This document shows, in pieces, positions 1-7,843 of a stretch of 21,804 bases of DNA (positions within the stretch are counted from its first letter, which is position 1; each line of letters begins with the position of its first letter). A program made the translations under genes and the position numbers. Source of the DNA: Minisyncoccota bacterium. Lineage in GTDB: Bacteria > Patescibacteriota > Minisyncoccia > Phycocordibacterales > JBAYGS01. The notes below the pieces were generated by a model, which saw only the letters and a program-made list of their open reading frames with translations, was not told the origin of the DNA and made no database searches. The stretch covers positions 1-21,804 of the forward strand of contig JBAYGS010000001.1 of NCBI GenBank assembly GCA_041666545.1, in the 5' to 3' direction.

Positions 1-1207
1 AACTGACCTCGCCACTTGGACAACCATCACGACTGTTCCGACTATCGTGAATGGTTGCAATACGGTTTCCACCACCACTCCGGCTATCGCGTCTTTCTAC
101 CAACTGGTGGCGCCGAGTGTGCCCCCAGTCTCTCCGACCGTTGCCGTCACCTTGACTCCGAGTGTGACTTCCGGCACAGCCCCGCTTAGTGGTGTCACTT
201 TTGCGGTGACGGTTTCCGGCACAGCTGTCGGCAGTTCAGTTTTGGATGTTGACTGCGATAACAATGGCGCAGTTGATTTTTCAACTACAACCAATCAAAC
301 AACTTTCACCACTGACGGCTCGTGTACTTACAGCACCGCTGGAACTTACACGGCTCACGCTTCGATTTTAAGACAGGGTGTTTCAGCAACGGCGGATGCG
401 ACGATAAATGTTTCGGCTCCAGTTGTTGCTAATGGTGGCAACGGAGGTGGTGGGGGAGGCAGTGGTGGTGGCGGAGCCCCATCTGGCGGGAACGGCCCAA
501 TTTCCGGAACGCTGGTTGTTTCAGTCGGTGGTTCCAATAATTCTCCGGCGTCAACTCCGGCCTCTGGTGGTGGCATTATTGGAAGCGGTACTCCTGCATC
601 TGCGCCACTTTCCTGTACTTACCTAAATTCATATCTTGGTAAGCAGAAGCAAAATGATTCGGCCGAAGTTCTGAAGTTGCAGGCCTTCCTTCGAGATACT
701 GAGAAGATTGATGTTCCCTTGAATGGAATTTATGATGATGCAACCGAGGTTGCAGTCATGGCCTTTCAGGTCAAATATTCAGCTGATGTCTTGGAACCTT
801 GGGCCACGACTACGCCGACCGGCTATGCCTACATCACTACCGTCAAGAAAGTAAACGACATCTTCTGTGGGTCACTTGATCCGAACTATGCCCCGACCGG
901 TCTGCCGGAACTTGTCCCTGATACCAGCATCCCCGTTGGCGCGGGTTCCCAGATCGGCAGTACGGCCACCTCGACTAATCTGGCCCTAACGAGCGAGGAA
1001 ATCCTTAAAGGACAAAATCTAGAGGCTACCTCAACCTTGCCGGTTACCGGATTGATAGGACTAAACATAGCGACAACTGGCTCAATTGCGACAAACAGTC
1101 CGCCTGTGATAGTTAGGATTCAATCAAACACCGCGACCGTTTTTAATGCCATCAGCAGTACAATCCTCGATGCCTTGAGGGCTCTCTGGGAGCGTCTGAA
1201 GCGATAA
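1..1207 (+). CDS. 5'-truncated Thr/Ser/Gly-rich secreted or surface protein with a C-terminal peptidoglycan-binding-like (PG_binding_1-type) domain
   Basis: The reading frame is open from base 2 to the TAA at 1205-1207, with no in-frame stop upstream, so the gene probably starts outside the window. It has long T/S/A/V-rich low-complexity stretches and a poly-Gly linker (GGNGGGGGGSGGGGAPSGGNG). The segment LKLQAFLRDTEKIDVPLNGIYDDATEVAVMAFQ resembles the helical peptidoglycan-binding repeat. Confidence 0.5.
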   Translation, partial: TDLATWTTITTVPTIVNGCNTVSTTTPAIASFYQLVAPSVPPVSPTVAVTLTPSVTSGTAPLSGVTFAVTVSGTAVGSSVLDVDCDNNGAVDFSTTTNQTTFTTDGSCTYSTAGTYTAHASILRQGVSATADATINVSAPVVANGGNGGGGGGSGGGGAPSGGNGPISGTLVVSVGGSNNSPASTPASGGGIIGSGTPASAPLSCTYLNSYLGKQKQNDSAEVLKLQAFLRDTEKIDVPLNGIYDDATEVAVMAFQVKYSADVLEPWATTTPTGYAYITTVKKVNDIFCGSLDPNYAPTGLPELVPDTSIPVGAGSQIGSTATSTNLALTSEEILKGQNLEATSTLPVTGLIGLNIATTGSIATNSPPVIVRIQSNTATVFNAISSTILDALRALWERLKR

Positions 1208-1347
1208 AGGACATGCATTTTGTCCTTTAGAAATGTCCTTTAGACACGGGACTCTCGGGTAGGTCAAAGTTATACACGCTAATCTGCCCAAATTGGGTAG
1301 GTTTTTGAGTTGGAGAAAACGGCCTTTTGGCTAGGGATTGACTCGCG

Positions 1348-1384
1348 GGCCCCGCACTTGTTGCAAATGCGGGGTCTTTAAAAC
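1348..1384 (+). terminator. Rho-independent terminator-like hairpin (CCCCGCA-cttgttgcaa-TGCGGGG) followed by TCTTTAAAA
   Basis: A GC-rich inverted repeat is followed by a T-rich tract, about 140 nt downstream of the stop of the 1..1207 gene. Confidence 0.4.
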
Positions 1385-1501
1385 GCTTGACCCCGTTAGA
1401 GATAGGTCATCAAGGATGACAGTAGATGTGGCTCTAGTCTCGCTTTTACTAAGTAAAATAAGGGAAAATCTGCCATTCTTAACAACAAATCTCTAACGGG
1501 G

Positions 1502-1529
1502 TTGACAAAAAAACTGGTTATGCTATACT
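1502..1529 (+). promoter_or_regulatory. Near-consensus sigma70-type promoter: TTGACA, 16-nt spacer, TATACT
   Basis: TTGACA lies at 1502-1507 and TATACT at 1524-1529 with canonical spacing. No protein-coding ORF of meaningful size lies downstream before the terminator at 1802-1835. Confidence 0.5.
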
Positions 1530-1536
1530 AGTATCA

Positions 1537-1835
1537 ATTCGGCTAGGAGTGCTTATGTCGTTGGCTAGGTCTCGTTGATGACCGCAAGCCCGCTCCCTCC
1601 CGAAGATAATAGTACAAACCCATCGGCGGCCCCCGCATGCGTTGCTAAGGGGCCATAATGAAAGAGTCTTGACCAACGGCCAAATCGCTAAACCGGTCAT
1701 GATTCTTGTATCCCGGCACCGGGCAAAACGCCCGACCAAAGGAGGTGAGTCCAATTCACTAGCTAAAATCATATAATTAAAACAAATCGGCGCGAGCCGT
1801 AGAGGTGGACCGCAAGGCCCACCTCTTTTTCTTTT
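1537..1835 (+). ncRNA. Candidate ~300-nt non-coding transcript bounded by the consensus promoter at 1502 and the intrinsic terminator at 1802
   Basis: There is no plus-strand ORF of 60 aa or more in the interval. The transcript would contain internal hairpins (GGCCCCCGCATGCGTTGCTAAGGGGCC at 1628-1654) and ends with GAGGTGGACC-gcaa-GGCCCACCTC followed by TTTTTCTTTT. Its identity is unknown. Confidence 0.3.
1802..1835 (+). terminator. Intrinsic terminator: GAGGTGGACC-gcaa-GGCCCACCTC followed by TTTTTCTTTT
   Basis: A perfect 10-bp GC-rich stem with a tetraloop is followed by a T-tract. Confidence 0.6.
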
Positions 1836-1991
1836 CCAGCTTTTATGATAATTTTTAGACAGAAAGGGGGTGTTGCTGATGACCGAAAATTCTGTGACGG
1901 GTGCTCTTACTTACTATGTTTGACTTCCTGTCACAGAGATCGGTGACCGTGTCCAAATCAACTCGCTATTACTACCACGCGCGGTCACCAC

Positions 1992-2031
1992 GGCCCCGCA
2001 CTTGCCTACAAGTGCGGGGCTTTTCTTTTTT
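1992..2031 (+). terminator. Intrinsic terminator: GGCCCCGCACTTG-ccta-CAAGTGCGGGGC followed by TTTTCTTTTTT
   Basis: An 11-12 bp GC-rich stem is followed by a T-tract. It is the same hairpin family as those at 1351, 2583 and 3713. Confidence 0.6.
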
Positions 2032-2072
2032 AAAATGGGGCATATAATTGCCAAAGGAAAGGAAATTCTGTT

Positions 2073-2558
2073 ATGGCTGATGATACTGAACGGGACAGTC
2101 AAGAAGGCTCCGGGCCTGGTCCATGTCTAAGCCCGCTAGGGCTTCTGGCTATCATTTGTGGTGAAGCCGAGGCTATTGAGTTGATGCAAAGAAGACTTCA
2201 AGTCCAGCTCGATACTTTGCATTTGGTTCTCACCAATGCCGATTTTAATCTGTGTATCGGTATCCTGAACTATCTCGAGAAGAGATTTCCGGACGAACAG
2301 CTGGTAGTTTTCAAACGTGCCTGTGACATGGCCGAAAATACCGGTCATCTCGGAATTCTCGAAGATTATCTGCAAAGAATACCAAGCGAGATTACAGGCT
2401 ATGCCATGCGGGAGTGGGAGAGGGCCTGTGAAAGGATTTTGAATCCTGAGGATGAGGAGGGGTCTCTGAATACTGGCCAGGGATCTGGCAGGGCAGAGGA
2501 GACTGAAACTCCGCCCAAGTCCGAGGAGCCACCGGCATCGTCTGGCTTTGCGGTTTAA
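2073..2558 (+). CDS. Hypothetical protein (161 aa) with an acidic C-terminus
   Basis: The ORF is preceded by AAGGAAAGGAAATTCTGTT then ATG, with a TATAAT-like box at 2044-2049 upstream, and is followed by a terminator module. No recognisable family. Confidence 0.5.
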   Translation: MADDTERDSQEGSGPGPCLSPLGLLAIICGEAEAIELMQRRLQVQLDTLHLVLTNADFNLCIGILNYLEKRFPDEQLVVFKRACDMAENTGHLGILEDYLQRIPSEITGYAMREWERACERILNPEDEEGSLNTGQGSGRAEETETPPKSEEPPASSGFAV

Positions 2559-2568
2559 AGTGAGTTCT

Positions 2569-2690
2569 TAAGAATTAAAACCGCCCCGACCTTGTAGCAA
2601 GCGTCGGGGCTTTCTCTTTCTCTCCTAATTTTTCCCCCTCTTTCTTCTCTTCTCTTTTTCATACCATATACCCTATACCTTATACTTCCT
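2569..2690 (+). repeat. Copy A of a repeated 3' module: conserved ~89-bp core (terminator hairpin CCCCGACCTTG-tag-CAAGCGTCGGGG, CT-rich tract, TTTTTCCCCCTCTTTCTTCTCTTC) followed by a short (TATAC[C/T]) microsatellite
   Basis: Bases 2569-2657 are nearly identical (1 mismatch over about 89 bp) to 3698-3786. It lies immediately 3' of the stop of the 2073..2558 gene. Confidence 0.8.
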
Positions 2691-2745
2691 ACCGTTGACA
2701 TTCTCGTCCTAAACTGATAGAACAAACCCAGAAAGGTTCTCTCAA

Positions 2746-3687
2746 ATGAAGACAATAAAAGAAATCAATCGATTGCAGAGACTCCAGTTTTCTCTCAGGT
2801 TGAAGCTTGGTAAGGATGCGTTGCCACAGATTAGAAAGGTGCTCGGTCTTACCGTTAACGATTCCCTGAGGGCCGGCATAGCGGAGCAAAAGAGGCATTT
2901 TATTCGTCGGGTCAAATCGGCCAAAAATTGTGTCCAGTGGGCGGGCCTGGCTAAGACCGATAACTTGGGCAAGAAACAGCGCGACCAGTATGCGGCCAAA
3001 GCCCTAAGGTTGGCCAAAACGAGCGACGACTGTCTCATGGCGGCCGAGGCGGCTGTCGAGGGGGGAGTCGTTTGGCGTAAAGCTGTGGACAAGGCCGAGA
3101 CGATAATTGGCACCCAACTGGTTCAGGCGACTGACATCAAGGTCGTTTCAGAAATCAATATCGAAAAATTGCCGACTTGGAGCAATATGCGAAAGTTGGT
3201 GACGGAGAAACTCAGAGTTCTTGCCATCAATGAATTCGCGAGTGCCCATACTACCGAGGATTGTTTACAGATCTCTCGGCGCACCTGGCAGTATTCCTTT
3301 CAGGTACCACTGTCAGGTCTGAATCATCAGATTTTGCGTCGGGCAGTAAAGCTGGCCGATACCGAGCAGAAGTGTCTTGCCGTTCGAAATTTCGGCAATG
3401 ATAGGATAATTCTGAAGTTGACAGAAAGAAAGCTTAAGAAGATTTTGACCGAAAGGCTCAACGAGGCCAAGACTTTTCAAGCTTGCTTTGATCTTTGGTC
3501 GAGGGCTCCACACAACAGCAGGATCGAGCGGCTCGTCATGAAGAAAACTTTCAAGCTGGCTCGGTCGGTGACTGATTGGGTGTCAGTCTGGGGCCGAGTG
3601 TGGCTCGACAAGGACAAGCGGGTTGTCATCCGGGCGCTTGCCAAATTGGCCGAGCGTGGCCGATTGGGCTGGTGTCTTCGTGAATGA
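2746..3687 (+). CDS. Hypothetical alpha-helical protein (313 aa)
   Basis: The long ORF starts at an ATG preceded by CCCAGAAAGGTTCTCTCAA and is followed by copy B of the terminator module. No recognisable family. Confidence 0.5.
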   Translation: MKTIKEINRLQRLQFSLRLKLGKDALPQIRKVLGLTVNDSLRAGIAEQKRHFIRRVKSAKNCVQWAGLAKTDNLGKKQRDQYAAKALRLAKTSDDCLMAAEAAVEGGVVWRKAVDKAETIIGTQLVQATDIKVVSEINIEKLPTWSNMRKLVTEKLRVLAINEFASAHTTEDCLQISRRTWQYSFQVPLSGLNHQILRRAVKLADTEQKCLAVRNFGNDRIILKLTERKLKKILTERLNEAKTFQACFDLWSRAPHNSRIERLVMKKTFKLARSVTDWVSVWGRVWLDKDKRVVIRALAKLAERGRLGWCLRE

Positions 3688-3697
3688 TCCACATTCC

Positions 3698-3905
3698 TAA
3701 GAATTAAAACCGCCCCGACCTTGTAGCAAGCGTCGGGGCTTTCTCTTTCTCTCTTAATTTTTCCCCCTCTTTCTTCTCTTCTTTTCTTCATACTTATACC
3801 TATACTTTATACTTATACTTCTTTTTCATACCATATACCCTATACCATATACTTCATACCTTCTTTTTCTACCATATACCATATACTATATACCTTATAC
3901 TTCTG
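3698..3905 (+). repeat. Copy B of the repeated 3' module, with an expanded ~115-bp TATAC[C/T]/TTCTTTTTC minisatellite (3790-3905) running up to the dnaX start region
   Basis: The core 3698-3786 matches 2569-2657. The downstream part contains three reiterations of a TTTTTC-(ATACC/TATAC)n unit where copy A has one. Confidence 0.8.
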
Positions 3906-3934
3906 TGCCCCTGCTTTTCTGCTATACTATCCCC

Positions 3935-4969
3935 ATGCACGAAGTCGCACTCTACCGAAAATATCGTCCAAAAAACTTCAAAGAAGTCTCCGGCCAGGAC
4001 GAGGTTGTCCGGGTTCTGGAAGGCGCGATTAAACAGGAGAAAATCGGCCACGCCTATATTTTTTCCGGCCCGCGCGGTACCGGCAAGACCTCTGTCGCAA
4101 GAATTTTCGCCGAAGCCATCGGCACTACCGGCAACGACCTCTACGAAATCGACGCCGCTTCAAACACCGGAGTCGACAACATTCGGGACTTGCGCGAGGC
4201 CATCAACACTCTGCCTTTCGAATCACCCTATAAAGTCTATCTAATAGACGAAGTGCACATGCTCTCCAAAGGCGCCTTCAACGCCTTGCTAAAGACCCTC
4301 GAAGAACCGCCCAAACACGCGATTTTCATTCTGGCTACCACCGAATTTCACAAAATTCCCGAGACGGTCGTTTCCCGTTGCCAAGTTTTCAGTTTCAAAA
4401 AGCCGTCTCTTTCCTTGCTCAAGGAGATGATTATTGATTTGGCGAAGCGCGAGGGTTTTACTCTCGAATCGGCCTCGGCCGATTTGGTGGCCCTCTTATC
4501 CGAAGGTTCCTTCCGCGACGCTCAAGTAATTCTCCAAAAAATCCTAAGTTCGGCCAAAGCTAAGAAAATTTCGAGTGAAGAAGTCGAGGCGATTACCGGC
4601 GCGCCGAAGGCGAGCCTGGTTAATCAATATTTGCAGGCGCTTGGTAGCGGGGAAGTCGAGCCGGGACTTCAAGCCTTGACGGAGGCCGAAAAACAAAATT
4701 TGGATATCAAAGTTTACGGCAAACTACTTTTACGCAAAGCGCGGGCAGTTTTAATTTTGAAGACCGCCCCGGGAATGGCGAAAAATCTTGAATCTGAATT
4801 TTCCGATTCCGATTTTGCTTTTCTCAAGGAATTGTCGGCAAACAAAAATTCTCGAATCAACTCTCCGGCTCTAATTGAAATCCTCACCGCCGTCGATCTC
4901 GTCGGCTACGCCTCAACCCAGACTTTACCTCTAGAATTGGCGCTGATAAAGTTGACGAATAATAAGTAG
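3935..4969 (+). CDS. dnaX: DNA polymerase III subunit gamma/tau (short form, AAA+ clamp-loader ATPase)
   Basis: The N-terminus YRPKNFKEVSGQDEVV is the DnaX signature. Walker A GPRGTGKTS, Walker B LIDEVHML and sensor-1 SRCQ are all present. The ORF opens at 3905 but the MHEVALYRKYRP start at 3935 fits DnaX N-termini. Confidence 0.8.
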   Translation: MHEVALYRKYRPKNFKEVSGQDEVVRVLEGAIKQEKIGHAYIFSGPRGTGKTSVARIFAEAIGTTGNDLYEIDAASNTGVDNIRDLREAINTLPFESPYKVYLIDEVHMLSKGAFNALLKTLEEPPKHAIFILATTEFHKIPETVVSRCQVFSFKKPSLSLLKEMIIDLAKREGFTLESASADLVALLSEGSFRDAQVILQKILSSAKAKKISSEEVEAITGAPKASLVNQYLQALGSGEVEPGLQALTEAEKQNLDIKVYGKLLLRKARAVLILKTAPGMAKNLESEFSDSDFAFLKELSANKNSRINSPALIEILTAVDLVGYASTQTLPLELALIKLTNNK

Positions 4970-5124: not shown

Positions 5125-5220
5125 GTTTGAGATAGGTTCGGACTCCAAGGAGCATCGTTCGACTCCTATGTCAGAGACGGTATATTTTGATTGGGTCTTA
5201 AGTTAGTGTGTAATGAAATC

Positions 5221-6438
5221 ATGAGCAAGAATCGACGAAAAAAGAAACGATACGTTCCCTATAAGCCGAAGCAGATGACTTCGATGGGTGTGTCATACAT
5301 GCCGAAACGCGTCAATGTTCTGAAACTTAACTCCTTACCACCATTGGTAGGCTTTGCTACAACCAATACTCCGGCAGGAAAAGAAGAATTAGTTCCTATA
5401 CTTGTTCGCGCTTATCTAACATCAGACGAGCGCGAATTCCATTTATATATGGAGCAAGTAAGCAACATCATTATCGAGAGGGCGAAGAAAGCAGGGATAA
5501 TCCTTTCCATTGATTCATTTGTCGAGTTTGTGCTTGTTATACATAAAGACGGCACAGGCGAACTTCATTTGGACGGGGCCGGCCGCGCAATCGAGATACT
5601 TACAAAGCGTACTGTCCAAGCCGGTGAAGCGGTTTACGGAGGAGATATTGGCGATATTCGTCGAATGAAGTATCACGCTTTGACCCCTGATCCCTCGGAT
5701 AAGATCGTCGCTTGTTTCAAGATTGGGTGGAAGTTTGGAATGTTCTTTGACCTTAGTGGTGAGCTGGATACGGATCGAATGGAGCGCGATTTGGCTACGC
5801 TTTACAAGCGTCTGCGCTACCAAGCGATGTATGAGGCACTTGCCGATGAAGCGACGGTCGAACGTATGACCAAAGCAGGTTGGTTCCCGTTTATCGAAGT
5901 CATTGGTGGTGACTTCGACCCACTAATAAAGGCATACAAAGCGGAGTTTGATATCGAGGCTAAGGAGAAACAACTTGTAGCCAAGTTCACTTCTGAACGC
6001 ATAGATAAGATTGCGGAGCGTTGGTGGCGAAACCCAGCGCTTGCTAAACACAAGACCGTGCTACAGGCTGGATTGGATGCATTCAAGGGTAACGACCCCG
6101 TTTCCTCTATAAAGAACATAATGACCGAAATCGAAGGTGTACTTGCGGATGTGCATTTGGCAGAGAAGGGATCGACGGCAAAGACTAAAGCATTGCTTAA
6201 ACATGCCGTAGAAAAGGGAGTGAAAAAAGTCGATGGCGAGGCATCGCTGTTCTTCCCGTCGAATTTCCTTGAATATCTTTTGAAAGTTGCGTACCCCGAT
6301 TTCGACCCTAACGCACCAGAAGTGGCTGGGGCTTCACGCCACACCGTCGGTCATGGGTATGCGGCCGGTGAGACATACACACAAGCACGTGCGCTCCAGG
6401 TGATACTCACGCTCGATCAAATCGTCTTCTATTTATAG
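5221..6438 (+). CDS. Hypothetical protein (about 405 aa) with a basic N-terminus (KNRRKKKRY) and a C-terminal SRHTVGHGY segment matching the HEPN Rx4-6H motif
   Basis: The ORF opens at a TTG at 5191; the first ATG is at 5221. It is the first gene after the tRNA and has no recognisable family. The C-terminal Rx4H motif is in the usual position for HEPN/Abi-type RNases; this assignment is inference. Confidence 0.5.
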   Translation: MSKNRRKKKRYVPYKPKQMTSMGVSYMPKRVNVLKLNSLPPLVGFATTNTPAGKEELVPILVRAYLTSDEREFHLYMEQVSNIIIERAKKAGIILSIDSFVEFVLVIHKDGTGELHLDGAGRAIEILTKRTVQAGEAVYGGDIGDIRRMKYHALTPDPSDKIVACFKIGWKFGMFFDLSGELDTDRMERDLATLYKRLRYQAMYEALADEATVERMTKAGWFPFIEVIGGDFDPLIKAYKAEFDIEAKEKQLVAKFTSERIDKIAERWWRNPALAKHKTVLQAGLDAFKGNDPVSSIKNIMTEIEGVLADVHLAEKGSTAKTKALLKHAVEKGVKKVDGEASLFFPSNFLEYLLKVAYPDFDPNAPEVAGASRHTVGHGYAAGETYTQARALQVILTLDQIVFYL

Positions 6439-6462
6439 GTTACCTCATTTCCGAGGAGAATT

Positions 6463-7185
6463 ATGCAAGATAGTTATATGGCAACTGGAATATTCTTTGC
6501 TCATCCACACACCCTTTTTAGTCAGGTGGAAAAGGTTTTAAAAAGAGTAGGTGCTCAGAAGTTTTTTACCAGTCCAGACGAAGAGGTGAAGAAGGCTCGA
6601 GAGGGATTTGCCGCCTATTTCTTCACGCTCACGATGAAGAAACACACCGGAAAGGACTGGTGGCTTGCACAGTATGACCAAGCCGAAAGAGCCTACCCAG
6701 ACTTCGACTTCATATCATTTGGGGAGACCCCAGAAAAGCTGGGTGCGGAATCTGTGGAATTAACTGGTGTCTACTCACACTTCAAGTCATTTGAGGAGAT
6801 GGCAAAGGTTGTTGAGAAAAAGCAGAAACAATATGGCGATAAGCCTGTTAAGTTCAGTTTATTGATATTCGTGAACCATGAGAAAAGCGAGGAGTGGATC
6901 AACCTCCTTAGGGAACGTCTGACAACCGAACATCCGTTTATAAGCATTTGGACAATTCACTTACGATTCAAGAAGGGTGGTCAGGAAGTCGGAAAGGCGG
7001 TCGCTCAGAGAATTAGACCATTGCCTGGATTGAGAGTTGAAGCTGATACTGATGATCCAAAAACTCACAAAAGACAACCTCTCCTGAGCTATATGGAAGA
7101 GAAGAGTGAGAACGGTACTAACTACGTTATCTTTAGACAAGAGTTTATTGATAAAATAATGTCATTCCGAGGAGCATCAAAATGA
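6463..7185 (+). CDS. Hypothetical protein (240 aa)
   Basis: A good RBS (GAGGAGAATT then ATG) 24 nt after the preceding stop makes it operon-like with the upstream gene. No recognisable family. Confidence 0.55.
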   Translation: MQDSYMATGIFFAHPHTLFSQVEKVLKRVGAQKFFTSPDEEVKKAREGFAAYFFTLTMKKHTGKDWWLAQYDQAERAYPDFDFISFGETPEKLGAESVELTGVYSHFKSFEEMAKVVEKKQKQYGDKPVKFSLLIFVNHEKSEEWINLLRERLTTEHPFISIWTIHLRFKKGGQEVGKAVAQRIRPLPGLRVEADTDDPKTHKRQPLLSYMEEKSENGTNYVIFRQEFIDKIMSFRGASK

Positions 7186-7254
7186 TAGAACAAAAGTAGT
7201 CAAATAAGCTTTGTTGGGCTTGATGGTAAAATTTACGAGACCGAGGAGGCCAGC

Positions 7255-7809
7255 ATGGAATTTTTAGTTGCAATAAAAGATTTTCTCTCCAGCCATGATT
7301 TTCAGGTATCTTTTTGGTCAGAGGTAATTGTGGCGGCAGTGGTCGGCTTTGTTGTGTATCAATATACTGATGTATTTAAATCGCCAAACCTTTGTTTTGT
7401 TGTGAAGCAGGATGGATTTTATAGAGACACTATTCTTCTTGTCGAGAATGGCGATGATTATACTGCGAGATTTCAGTTTGCTATAAGAAATAGCGGGAAT
7501 AAGGCACTGAAGGCAGGTGAGGGATATTGGCACTTGTATGTAAATACGAATTTACCCACAATATTTTCCGTCCCAGAAGAGCACGACCACAACAGGGACT
7601 TAATTCGAGGCACAATCTACCCGGGGTCATTTCTTGACATTGATTTAGTCTACGAATTGAAAGTAAAGAAAGAGGATATAGGCGAAAAAGAAATCCCCTA
7701 TTTTTTTAGTACCGACCATGGACAGTATCCAGCAATGGCAGAGATCGATCCGGCGACAGGAAAAGTTTTGTTCAAGAACATGGGTTATATTAAATTTGAG
7801 TTACCGTAA
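7255..7809 (+). CDS. Hypothetical protein (184 aa) with one N-terminal transmembrane helix
   Basis: The RBS is GAGGAGGCCAGC then ATG. A hydrophobic segment FWSEVIVAAVVGFVVYQY sits near the N-terminus. Confidence 0.55.
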   Translation: MEFLVAIKDFLSSHDFQVSFWSEVIVAAVVGFVVYQYTDVFKSPNLCFVVKQDGFYRDTILLVENGDDYTARFQFAIRNSGNKALKAGEGYWHLYVNTNLPTIFSVPEEHDHNRDLIRGTIYPGSFLDIDLVYELKVKKEDIGEKEIPYFFSTDHGQYPAMAEIDPATGKVLFKNMGYIKFELP

Positions 7810-7843
7810 TTAAATTAGTTGCCGGGACATTAGTGTTGCGTAT

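Follow-up and report, generated by a model that had tools for sequence, protein, structure and literature searches.

Contingency loci, as known from Neisseria, Haemophilus and Mycoplasma, are built on perfect short repeats that lie within an open reading frame (ORF) or between the -35 and -10 elements of a promoter. The pneumococcus carries SPRITE, a small interspersed repeat described in 2011 in which a stem-loop is joined to a tract of ~48% U near the 3′ ends of genes (PMC3049150). The BOX elements of streptococci, arranged as boxA-boxB(n)-boxC, are interspersed at many loci and have a tandem internal module that varies in number (PMC3049150). The subject of this article is an element that, by analogy of build and position, resembles SPRITE and BOX: a module of hairpin, pyrimidine tract and TATAC repeats that occurs twice in a 21.8-kb stretch of DNA (the window, by which we mean the whole stretch analysed) from a Candidatus Paceibacterota metagenome-assembled genome. 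One copy follows a gene that we call A; the other follows its neighbour, gene B, and ends just before dnaX. Our favoured explanation, to which we give a probability of roughly 0.55, is that the module is the conserved terminator and spacer of gene A, recently copied over a short distance to the flank of gene B, with a terminating and insulating role.

The window forms the final 21.8 kb of the 341-kb ENA contig ERZ27249449 k141_82438, starting 18 nucleotides (nt) from the contig end, and all coordinates below are window positions. Genes A and B are WCT25_00010 and WCT25_00015 at NCBI. The sequence recurs at 100% identity in short contigs of the Joint Genome Institute (JGI) metagenome 3300037810, to which a bioRxiv paper on viruses from landfill refers, and of SRR6484324 and SRR18595301. 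One JGI contig, L002 (3300037810), covers 2601-4266 at 100% identity and Logan contigs span both junctions, so the repeat is no assembly artefact of a single pipeline. Most window genes are without a Pfam match, a scarcity that fits a bacterium of the candidate phyla radiation (CPR). Among GTDB species representatives the closest DnaX reaches no more than 38% identity, which leaves no close genome for synteny; the relatives compared are the contigs L089 (SRR22216448), L092 (Logan SRR22388086), L090, L091, L096 and L097. For further copies of the module, 27.4 kb of the genome was read, namely the window and a 5.6-kb extension supplied by Logan contig L093.

A module behind two unrelated genes

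The genes and module parts on which the argument turns are as follows.

2073..2558, + strand: gene A, a 161-amino-acid hypothetical protein with no Pfam match but kept across the clade, 70% identical in amino acid sequence to its counterpart in L092 and 38% to that in L090
2565-2688, + strand: module copy 1, with lead-in TTCTTAAGAATTAAAACC at 2565-2582, hairpin at 2583-2610 and pyrimidine tract at 2610-2660
From 2653, ~40 nt, + strand: the one TATAC unit of module copy 1; the repeat copy 2653-2693 exceeds the module end at 2688 by 5 nt
2746..3687, + strand: gene B, 313 amino acids, lineage-specific, between the two module copies
3694-3903, + strand: module copy 2, with lead-in at 3694-3711, hairpin at 3712-3739 and pyrimidine tract at 3739-3789
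3778-3904, + strand: the three TATAC units of module copy 2, each of ~40 nt (Tandem Repeats Finder)
3920..3928, + strand: extended -10 element of dnaX, TGcTATACT, with its hexamer at 3923-3928, 6 nt before the ATG at 3935
3935..4969, + strand: dnaX, DNA polymerase III gamma/tau, 344 amino acids

A repeat search of the window returned a direct repeat of 100 nt, 2565-2664 and 3694-3793, at 96% identity, in which homology begins 6 nt past the stop codon of gene A and of gene B alike. The copies are spaced 1129 nt apart and bracket gene B, and the proteins encoded by A and B are unrelated (BLASTP E 0.11). An earlier sequence-only reading of the window had already pointed to near-identical 3′ flanks behind unrelated genes, and in this it was right. 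The repeat extends further than it described, and where it counted a single mismatch over the 89-nt interval 2569-2657 versus 3698-3786, base by base there are three (2625, 2654 and 2657), one of them within the first 85 nt. Its description of a copied terminator hairpin, of a tail that changes in length between the copies and of a second copy ending about 30 nt before the dnaX start was borne out by what we report next.

The module has four parts: it opens with an A-rich lead-in, goes on to a strong hairpin with a GC clamp and a tract free of G, and closes with degenerate TATAC(C/T) repeats. In the last part the copies differ in length. A 41-nt unit at 2653-2693 matches 3820-3860 at 95% of positions, and Tandem Repeats Finder reads 3778-3904 as 3.1 copies of a 40-nt period with 82% matches, so that module 1 has one unit and module 2 has three. 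(Shorter periods also describe the TATAC stretch of module 2: 7 nt with 16 copies and 66% matches, or 6 nt with 5 copies and 84%.) Of the 28 positions in the tail of module 1, 2661-2688, 26 agree with the last stretch of module 2, 3876-3903. This sets the module bounds at 2565-2688 (124 nt) and 3694-3903 (210 nt), a difference of about two 40-nt units. From the end of the second tract at 3903/3904 there are 31 nt to the dnaX ATG and ~20 nt to the dnaX -10 element.

A scan of the window for the hairpin, CCCCGACCTTG-TAG-CAAGCGTCGGGG, that tolerated as many as three mismatches gave exactly two occurrences, where shuffled sequences lead one to expect none. Both occurrences (2583-2610 and 3712-3739) are GC-rich stem-loops 25 nt beyond a stop codon, with a GC-clamped stem of 11-12 base pairs. 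They fold at -21 to -23 kcal/mol, with centroid energies of -19.7 and -20.9 and z scores of -3.6 and -5.0, respectively. On the 3′ side of the stem comes CTTTCTCTTTCTCTC, with 9 T in 15 positions, interrupted by C. Given a strong hairpin whose pairing is conserved by compensation in a relative, an A-rich lead-in and a pyrimidine- and U-rich tail, the hairpin is most likely a terminator of the Rho-independent type, both for A and for B. Rfam, run on the window and on 1200-4000, returned tRNA-Gln only, and the module is therefore not a known RNA family.

What follows the hairpin is stranger. In two features that the sequence-only reading did not bring up, the tract stands out. On the + strand G is missing from all 84 nt of 2610-2693 and all 166 nt of 3739-3904, where in 200 shuffles the longest such run averaged 37 nt and never exceeded 63. 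Each module has pure pyrimidine runs of 17 and 32 nt, and in 902 kb of other bacterial loci there was none of at least 25 nt; a G-free, pure-pyrimidine tract of this kind is unusual for bacteria. Having no G, the tract can hold no ATG, GTG or TTG and is predicted to form no strong RNA structure, and coding potential on its + strand is thereby ruled out. ORFs on the minus strand (2555-2755 and 3477-3791) are artefacts of the purine run. We also looked for DnaA boxes that might mark an origin and there was no match to TTATCCACA; the dip in skew is caused by the G-free tract itself. As for the TATAC repeats, they amount to strings of -10-like hexamers: strong promoters in this clade use TATACT as their -10, for example TTGACA-16-TGcTATACT at 1502-1529.

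Relatives and the origin of the second copy

It was suggested in the sequence-only reading that the locus be compared with that of related strains, and it is a comparison with relatives, through L092 and L089, that indicates copying from A to B. The gene A ortholog of L092 is identical to gene A at 78%, 84% and 49% of first, second and third codon positions, the last of which places synonymous sites near saturation. After gene A, L092 has GTTCTTGAAAATTAAAA, a hairpin, 51 nt of nothing but pyrimidines, 79 nt free of G and TATAC repeats, and there the contig ends. The hairpin, GCCCCGCGCATG-CTG-CATGCGCGGGGC, keeps the GCCCCG/CGGGGC clamp; its inner stem differs and is fully compensated, at -27.8 kcal/mol, in this one ortholog. 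Aligned with the module, the L092 lead-in and hairpin score 21 against 3.5±1.6 for shuffles and the TATAC tail 15-19.5 against 7±2; of the pyrimidine tract, the composition alone is retained. Because this layout is shared in spite of near-saturated synonymous sites, the module is native to the 3′ flank of gene A and conserved across a divergence that has scrambled neutral positions.

The region before dnaX looks different in the other relatives. In L090 and L091 (DnaX 67%, gene A 38%), gene A is followed by an ordinary hairpin and T-run, a 126-nt spacer and dnaX, with neither gene B nor the module between gene A and dnaX. In L089 (DnaX 85%) the gene next upstream of dnaX ends in a B-family C-terminus, recognised with hhalign at 96.3% probability (E 1.7e-9; in register with B residues 267-303) by a profile built from gene B and its remote relatives; the 112-nt spacer before dnaX contains an unrelated hairpin and no pyrimidine/TATAC tract. 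In the more distant L096 and L097 (64-65%), dus is the gene before dnaX, and the non-coding DNA between them measures 420-575 nt. A B-family gene thus seems to have stood before dnaX for longer than the 96%-identical repeats have existed. Since L089 pairs a B-family gene with an ordinary terminator and no module, the copy before dnaX is probably a recent, secondary copy of the flank of gene A. That the copying, or a homogenisation of the copies, was recent would follow from their 96% identity when synonymous sites between species are near saturation.

Put together, we would read the locus in this way. The intergenic region natural to gene A would be a terminator with a long G-free spacer, ending just before the next promoter. 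In the lineage of the window the whole module would have been copied ~1.1 kb downstream, replacing the stretch from terminator to promoter between gene B and dnaX, by non-reciprocal recombination or template switching. Microhomology may have guided the copying, with GC-clamped terminator hairpins on one side and, on the other, TATAC/TATACT, the latter being the dnaX -10 hexamer. Later slippage or unequal exchange among the ~40-nt units would have left one after A and three after B. The module would then stop transcription leaving A and leaving B, and would set a spacer free of structure and of start codons before the dnaX promoter, insulating it. That promoter, an extended -10 of leaderless type, has the form TGnTATA(C/A)T-N6-ATG, lies outside the repeat and is kept in five Paceibacterota-like species (L089 at 232-243, L090 at 2664-2675, L096 and L097 among them); its spacing points to a leaderless dnaX mRNA. 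By virtue of the direct repeats, 100 nt long and 1129 nt apart, gene B should be open to loss or amplification by recombination.

Several points weigh against this account. The stem of the module hairpin has a one-base bulge, the tail after it (CUUUCUCUUUCUCUC) has no clean U-run, and a consensus terminator scan of the window did not list the module hairpins, although it listed a neighbouring hairpin, H2, which has a true T-run. A length of 84-166 nt without G exceeds what a plain terminator needs, and here we have a conserved property that termination alone does not explain; this G-free, pure-pyrimidine tract is the one feature that ordinary termination leaves over. The count of two copies rests on 27.4 kb of a genome of more than 341 kb. 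For L089 and L092 the sequence at hand is a short contig each, from different samples and maybe from different species; the L092 contig stops inside the tract and so does not cover the downstream neighbour of its module, and L089 may once have had the module and lost it.

If the account of local copying is true, the locus illustrates cleanly how a terminator and its spacer, as an intergenic control region, can be copied over a short distance in the very small genomes of the CPR, and it shows lineage-specific genes accumulating between a conserved RNA gene and dnaX. It has no bearing on a long-standing open question and gives no evidence of a new regulatory switch.

Other readings of the repeat

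Two further hairpins upstream have to be brought in before the alternatives can be weighed.

1350..1374, + strand: H1, a diverged hairpin of the same family, CCCCGCACTTG-TTG-CAAATGCGGGG, from a regular-expression scan; it has the same 5′ arm as H2
1994..2019, + strand: H2, a canonical terminator hairpin and T-run, CCCCGCACTTG-CCTA-CAAGTGCGGGG cttttctttttt, at -27 kcal/mol, just upstream of the gene A promoter

Both are related to the module hairpins (H3 and H4) and lie on the same strand, which makes four hairpins within 2.4 kb of the common form CCCCG..CTTG-loop-CAAG..CGGGG followed by CTTT or TCTTT. At the equivalent sites L092 lacks hairpins like H1 and H2. Between a candidate RNA gene (described below) and H2 there is a short ORF, 1863-1907 (MTENSVTGALTYYV), with a GGGGG Shine-Dalgarno-like motif, and the segment with this ORF and H2 is absent from the corresponding L092 site.

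One alternative turns the history around and makes gene B the newcomer. The ancestor would have been A-module-dnaX, and a segment with B and a homologous module, for example a circular one, would have recombined into the module, from which B could be excised again. In its favour, direct repeats of 100 nt, spaced 1129 nt apart, bracket B and one module; dnaX comes directly after gene A, without B, in L090 and L091; the relatives of gene B are all remote; and the gene for a 1603-amino-acid protein likewise sits between identical 27-nt hairpins (8381 and 13241), as gene A sits between H2 and H3. We nevertheless hold duplicative insertion to be unlikely, if deserving of serious attention, for L089 already has a B-family gene at dnaX, with an unrelated terminator and no module, and the window ORFs include no recombinase or transposase nearby. 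Should the module instead belong to a small interspersed family of terminator-like repeats, dispersed around the genome as SPRITE and BOX are and perhaps spread by local hopping, its build would be familiar: a core with one or three ~40-nt units, a position at gene 3′ ends, and a hairpin with a U- and pyrimidine-rich tract (PMC3049150). The four related hairpins in 2.4 kb, and the clustering within the window of two other hairpin families (D5 and D7), might be taken the same way. Yet the 27.4 kb holds only two full copies, adjacent to one another, with none in the 5.6 kb past the window. A hairpin scan found no match in species-representative genomes or in viral contigs and one in JGI metagenome contigs (L008), which is due to chance, with a GIY-YIG-like ORF adjacent and other flanks; pyrimidine tract and TATAC unit each had 0 matches in viral contigs, and the module had none in plasmids. 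The module ends, TTCTTAAGAATT... and ...CCTTATACTTC, are not complementary and no bases are duplicated in the flanks, so that terminal inverted repeats and target duplications are missing, and L092 has its module at the orthologous site, indicating vertical inheritance with the flank of gene A. We think dispersal of this kind improbable. Two named classes of mobile element were rejected along the way: a miniature inverted-repeat transposable element, by the same ends, and an integron attC site, by the lack of GTTRRRY at the module ends and of any integrase or recombinase among the window ORFs. The sequence-only reading had spoken of a mobile or recombining cassette. The notion of local re-use and copying survives, through the relatives (A flank to B flank) and through H1 and H2; that of mobility found no support, with two adjacent copies in 27.4 kb, no true match in the genome, metagenome, viral and plasmid collections, and ends without terminal inverted repeats or target duplications. 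The suggestion in the same reading that repeat number might modulate read-through into dnaX is likewise unsupported.

Other possibilities give the G-free tract a job of its own. Kept at 80-170 nt in two species, it is possibly a Rho-loading site, an array of protein-binding sites or a recombination-prone segment of non-B DNA, and non-B motifs have been linked to instability in bacteria (PMC4666352). In one version the tract and its TATAC units would be a Rho utilization (rut)-like fail-safe, a stack of weak promoters or an array for a pyrimidine-specific protein, copied because dnaX benefits. With no G at all (0%) and a C content of 29-37% along their 84 and 166 nt, the tracts match a rut site (~70-80 nt or more of C-rich, G-poor, unstructured RNA) in composition only; composition and TATAC repeats are kept in L092 despite its near-saturated synonymous sites; and TATACT, the -10 of strong promoters in this clade, appears in TTCATA-17-TATACT at 2658-2686 and 3825-3853, with a spacing of 16/17 in each 40-nt unit. 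Against it, the promoter-like matches score 9 of 12 in a scan that totals 26 where shuffles predict 22.5, every TATACT copy in the tract is without the TGn extension, and dnaX does without such a tract in L089, L090, L096 and L097. Literature searches on Rho in CPR/Patescibacteria found nothing. The chances of a selected function of this sort strike us as slimmer again than those of dispersal, and just as slim are those of a more speculative thought, in which lineage-specific genes repeatedly bracketed by copies of terminator hairpins (A by H2 and H3, B by the modules, the 1603-amino-acid gene by the 27-nt hairpins) would reflect hairpin-templated insertion or exchange of genes, cassette-like and without a recognisable recombinase, with the G-free tract a functional part as non-B DNA or protein site. 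The bracketed genes do lie between a conserved non-coding RNA and dnaX, in a stretch that is gene-free in more distant relatives. Least credible of all is the contingency locus of the sequence-only reading, in which changes in TATAC repeat number would switch or tune dnaX. Unit number does differ, 1 versus 3, between the paralogous copies, and the tract does end close to the dnaX -10 element. However, the repeats are imperfect at every period tried (66%, 84% and 82% matches at 7, 6 and 40 nt); they are placed upstream of the promoter, an extended -10 that can do without a -35; dnaX is a housekeeping gene and essential; and in JGI L002, the other assembly that spans the tract, its length is the same as in the ENA contig, the samples being perhaps not independent. 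We give the idea next to no weight.

Neighbouring genes and known counterparts

Gene B has a promoter of its own in prospect.

2696..2724, + strand: promoter-like site of gene B, putative, TTGACA-17-TAGAAC, outside the repeat, with a GAAAGG Shine-Dalgarno-like motif before the ATG at 2746

Among 5.8 billion proteins there is no close homolog of its product, which is a member of a loose family of 280-340 amino acids with helical repeats of ~35 residues and the motif LA.T.EEC (A.T..EC), in which remote matches are 23-36% identical; one remote relative is a protein of 1554 amino acids with 7 matched stretches. Gene B had no match in phages and no significant similarity to the 1603-amino-acid protein of the window.

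Upstream of gene A there is always a candidate non-coding RNA of ~300 nt (1502-1836 on the + strand of the window, 1250-1562 in L092 and 1440-1752 in L090). It has the strong promoter TTGACA-16-TGcTATACT, conserved like the RNA in the three species, and a 3′ hairpin with a T-run; of the 63 pairs in the consensus fold, 19 show compensatory changes in one or more of the sequences, and there is no Rfam match. In many bacteria the gene for the signal recognition particle (SRP) RNA lies upstream of dnaX, and the candidate may be a divergent SRP RNA or something new. Further upstream, window positions 1-1207 lie inside a repetitive surface-protein gene. JGI contig L005 (1-933) has an extra repeat copy of ~825 nt, with a product of 702 amino acids that has Ig-like domain matches, so the repeat number of this gene varies between assemblies or collapses in assembly.

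Downstream of dnaX, the genes at 5191-8368 have no Pfam match. The 1603-amino-acid protein (8425-13236) has internal DNA repeats (D3 and D4) and, only at its C-terminus (~1480-1539), a GNAT acetyltransferase domain. The whole 5-13 kb stretch looks lineage-specific, since L096 and L097 carry other genes downstream of dnaX. An identical 27-nt hairpin, AATCTACAAGGTCCGGCCTTGTAATTA, stands at 8381-8407 and 13241-13267, 13 nt and 5 nt past the stops of 7844-8368 and 8425-13236, respectively, and the 1603-amino-acid gene is thus flanked, as gene B is, by two copies of one hairpin. Further along there is a palindrome with 12-base-pair arms, GTTCCACTTTAG-N4-CTAAAGTGGAACGGG, at three intergenic sites within 3.7 kb (14069-14099, 16209-16239 and 17749-17779; 87-100% identical). 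One of these belongs to a divergent promoter region, there is a response-regulator gene close by, and no further copy occurs in the 5.6 kb past the window. It could be an operator or a hairpin like the repetitive extragenic palindromes (REP-like). With the H1-H4 family and two other locally clustered hairpin families in one window, this genome seems to be in the habit of re-using hairpins over short distances, which lends some weight to the word "recombining" in the sequence-only reading but none to mobility across the genome. At the far end, JGI contig L094 (998-2450) encodes exactly the 173-amino-acid protein of 21273-21794 and continues with other downstream genes than Logan L093, which suggests a strain-level rearrangement within the same community.

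How, then, does the module sit among the systems with which we began? It shares with contingency loci short tandem repeats that adjoin a promoter, but in its case the repeats are degenerate and placed upstream of an extended -10, and the one other assembly compared showed no variation in length. BOX offers a parallel in that the number of internal modules varies between copies; it has, on the other hand, terminal inverted repeats, tight folds and many separate loci, none of which the module has as far as tested. With SPRITE the module has in common a stem-loop and a long U-rich tract (49% T) near the 3′ ends of genes. Here, though, two adjacent copies are known, with a copy at the orthologous site in another species; the sequences are not similar, and the organisms belong to different phyla. 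The intrinsic terminators are like it in having a GC-rich stem-loop after the stop codon, A-rich sequence before and U- or pyrimidine-rich sequence after, and in the compensatory changes of the ortholog; the module departs from them in a tail of mixed C and U that runs on into 84-166 nt free of G.

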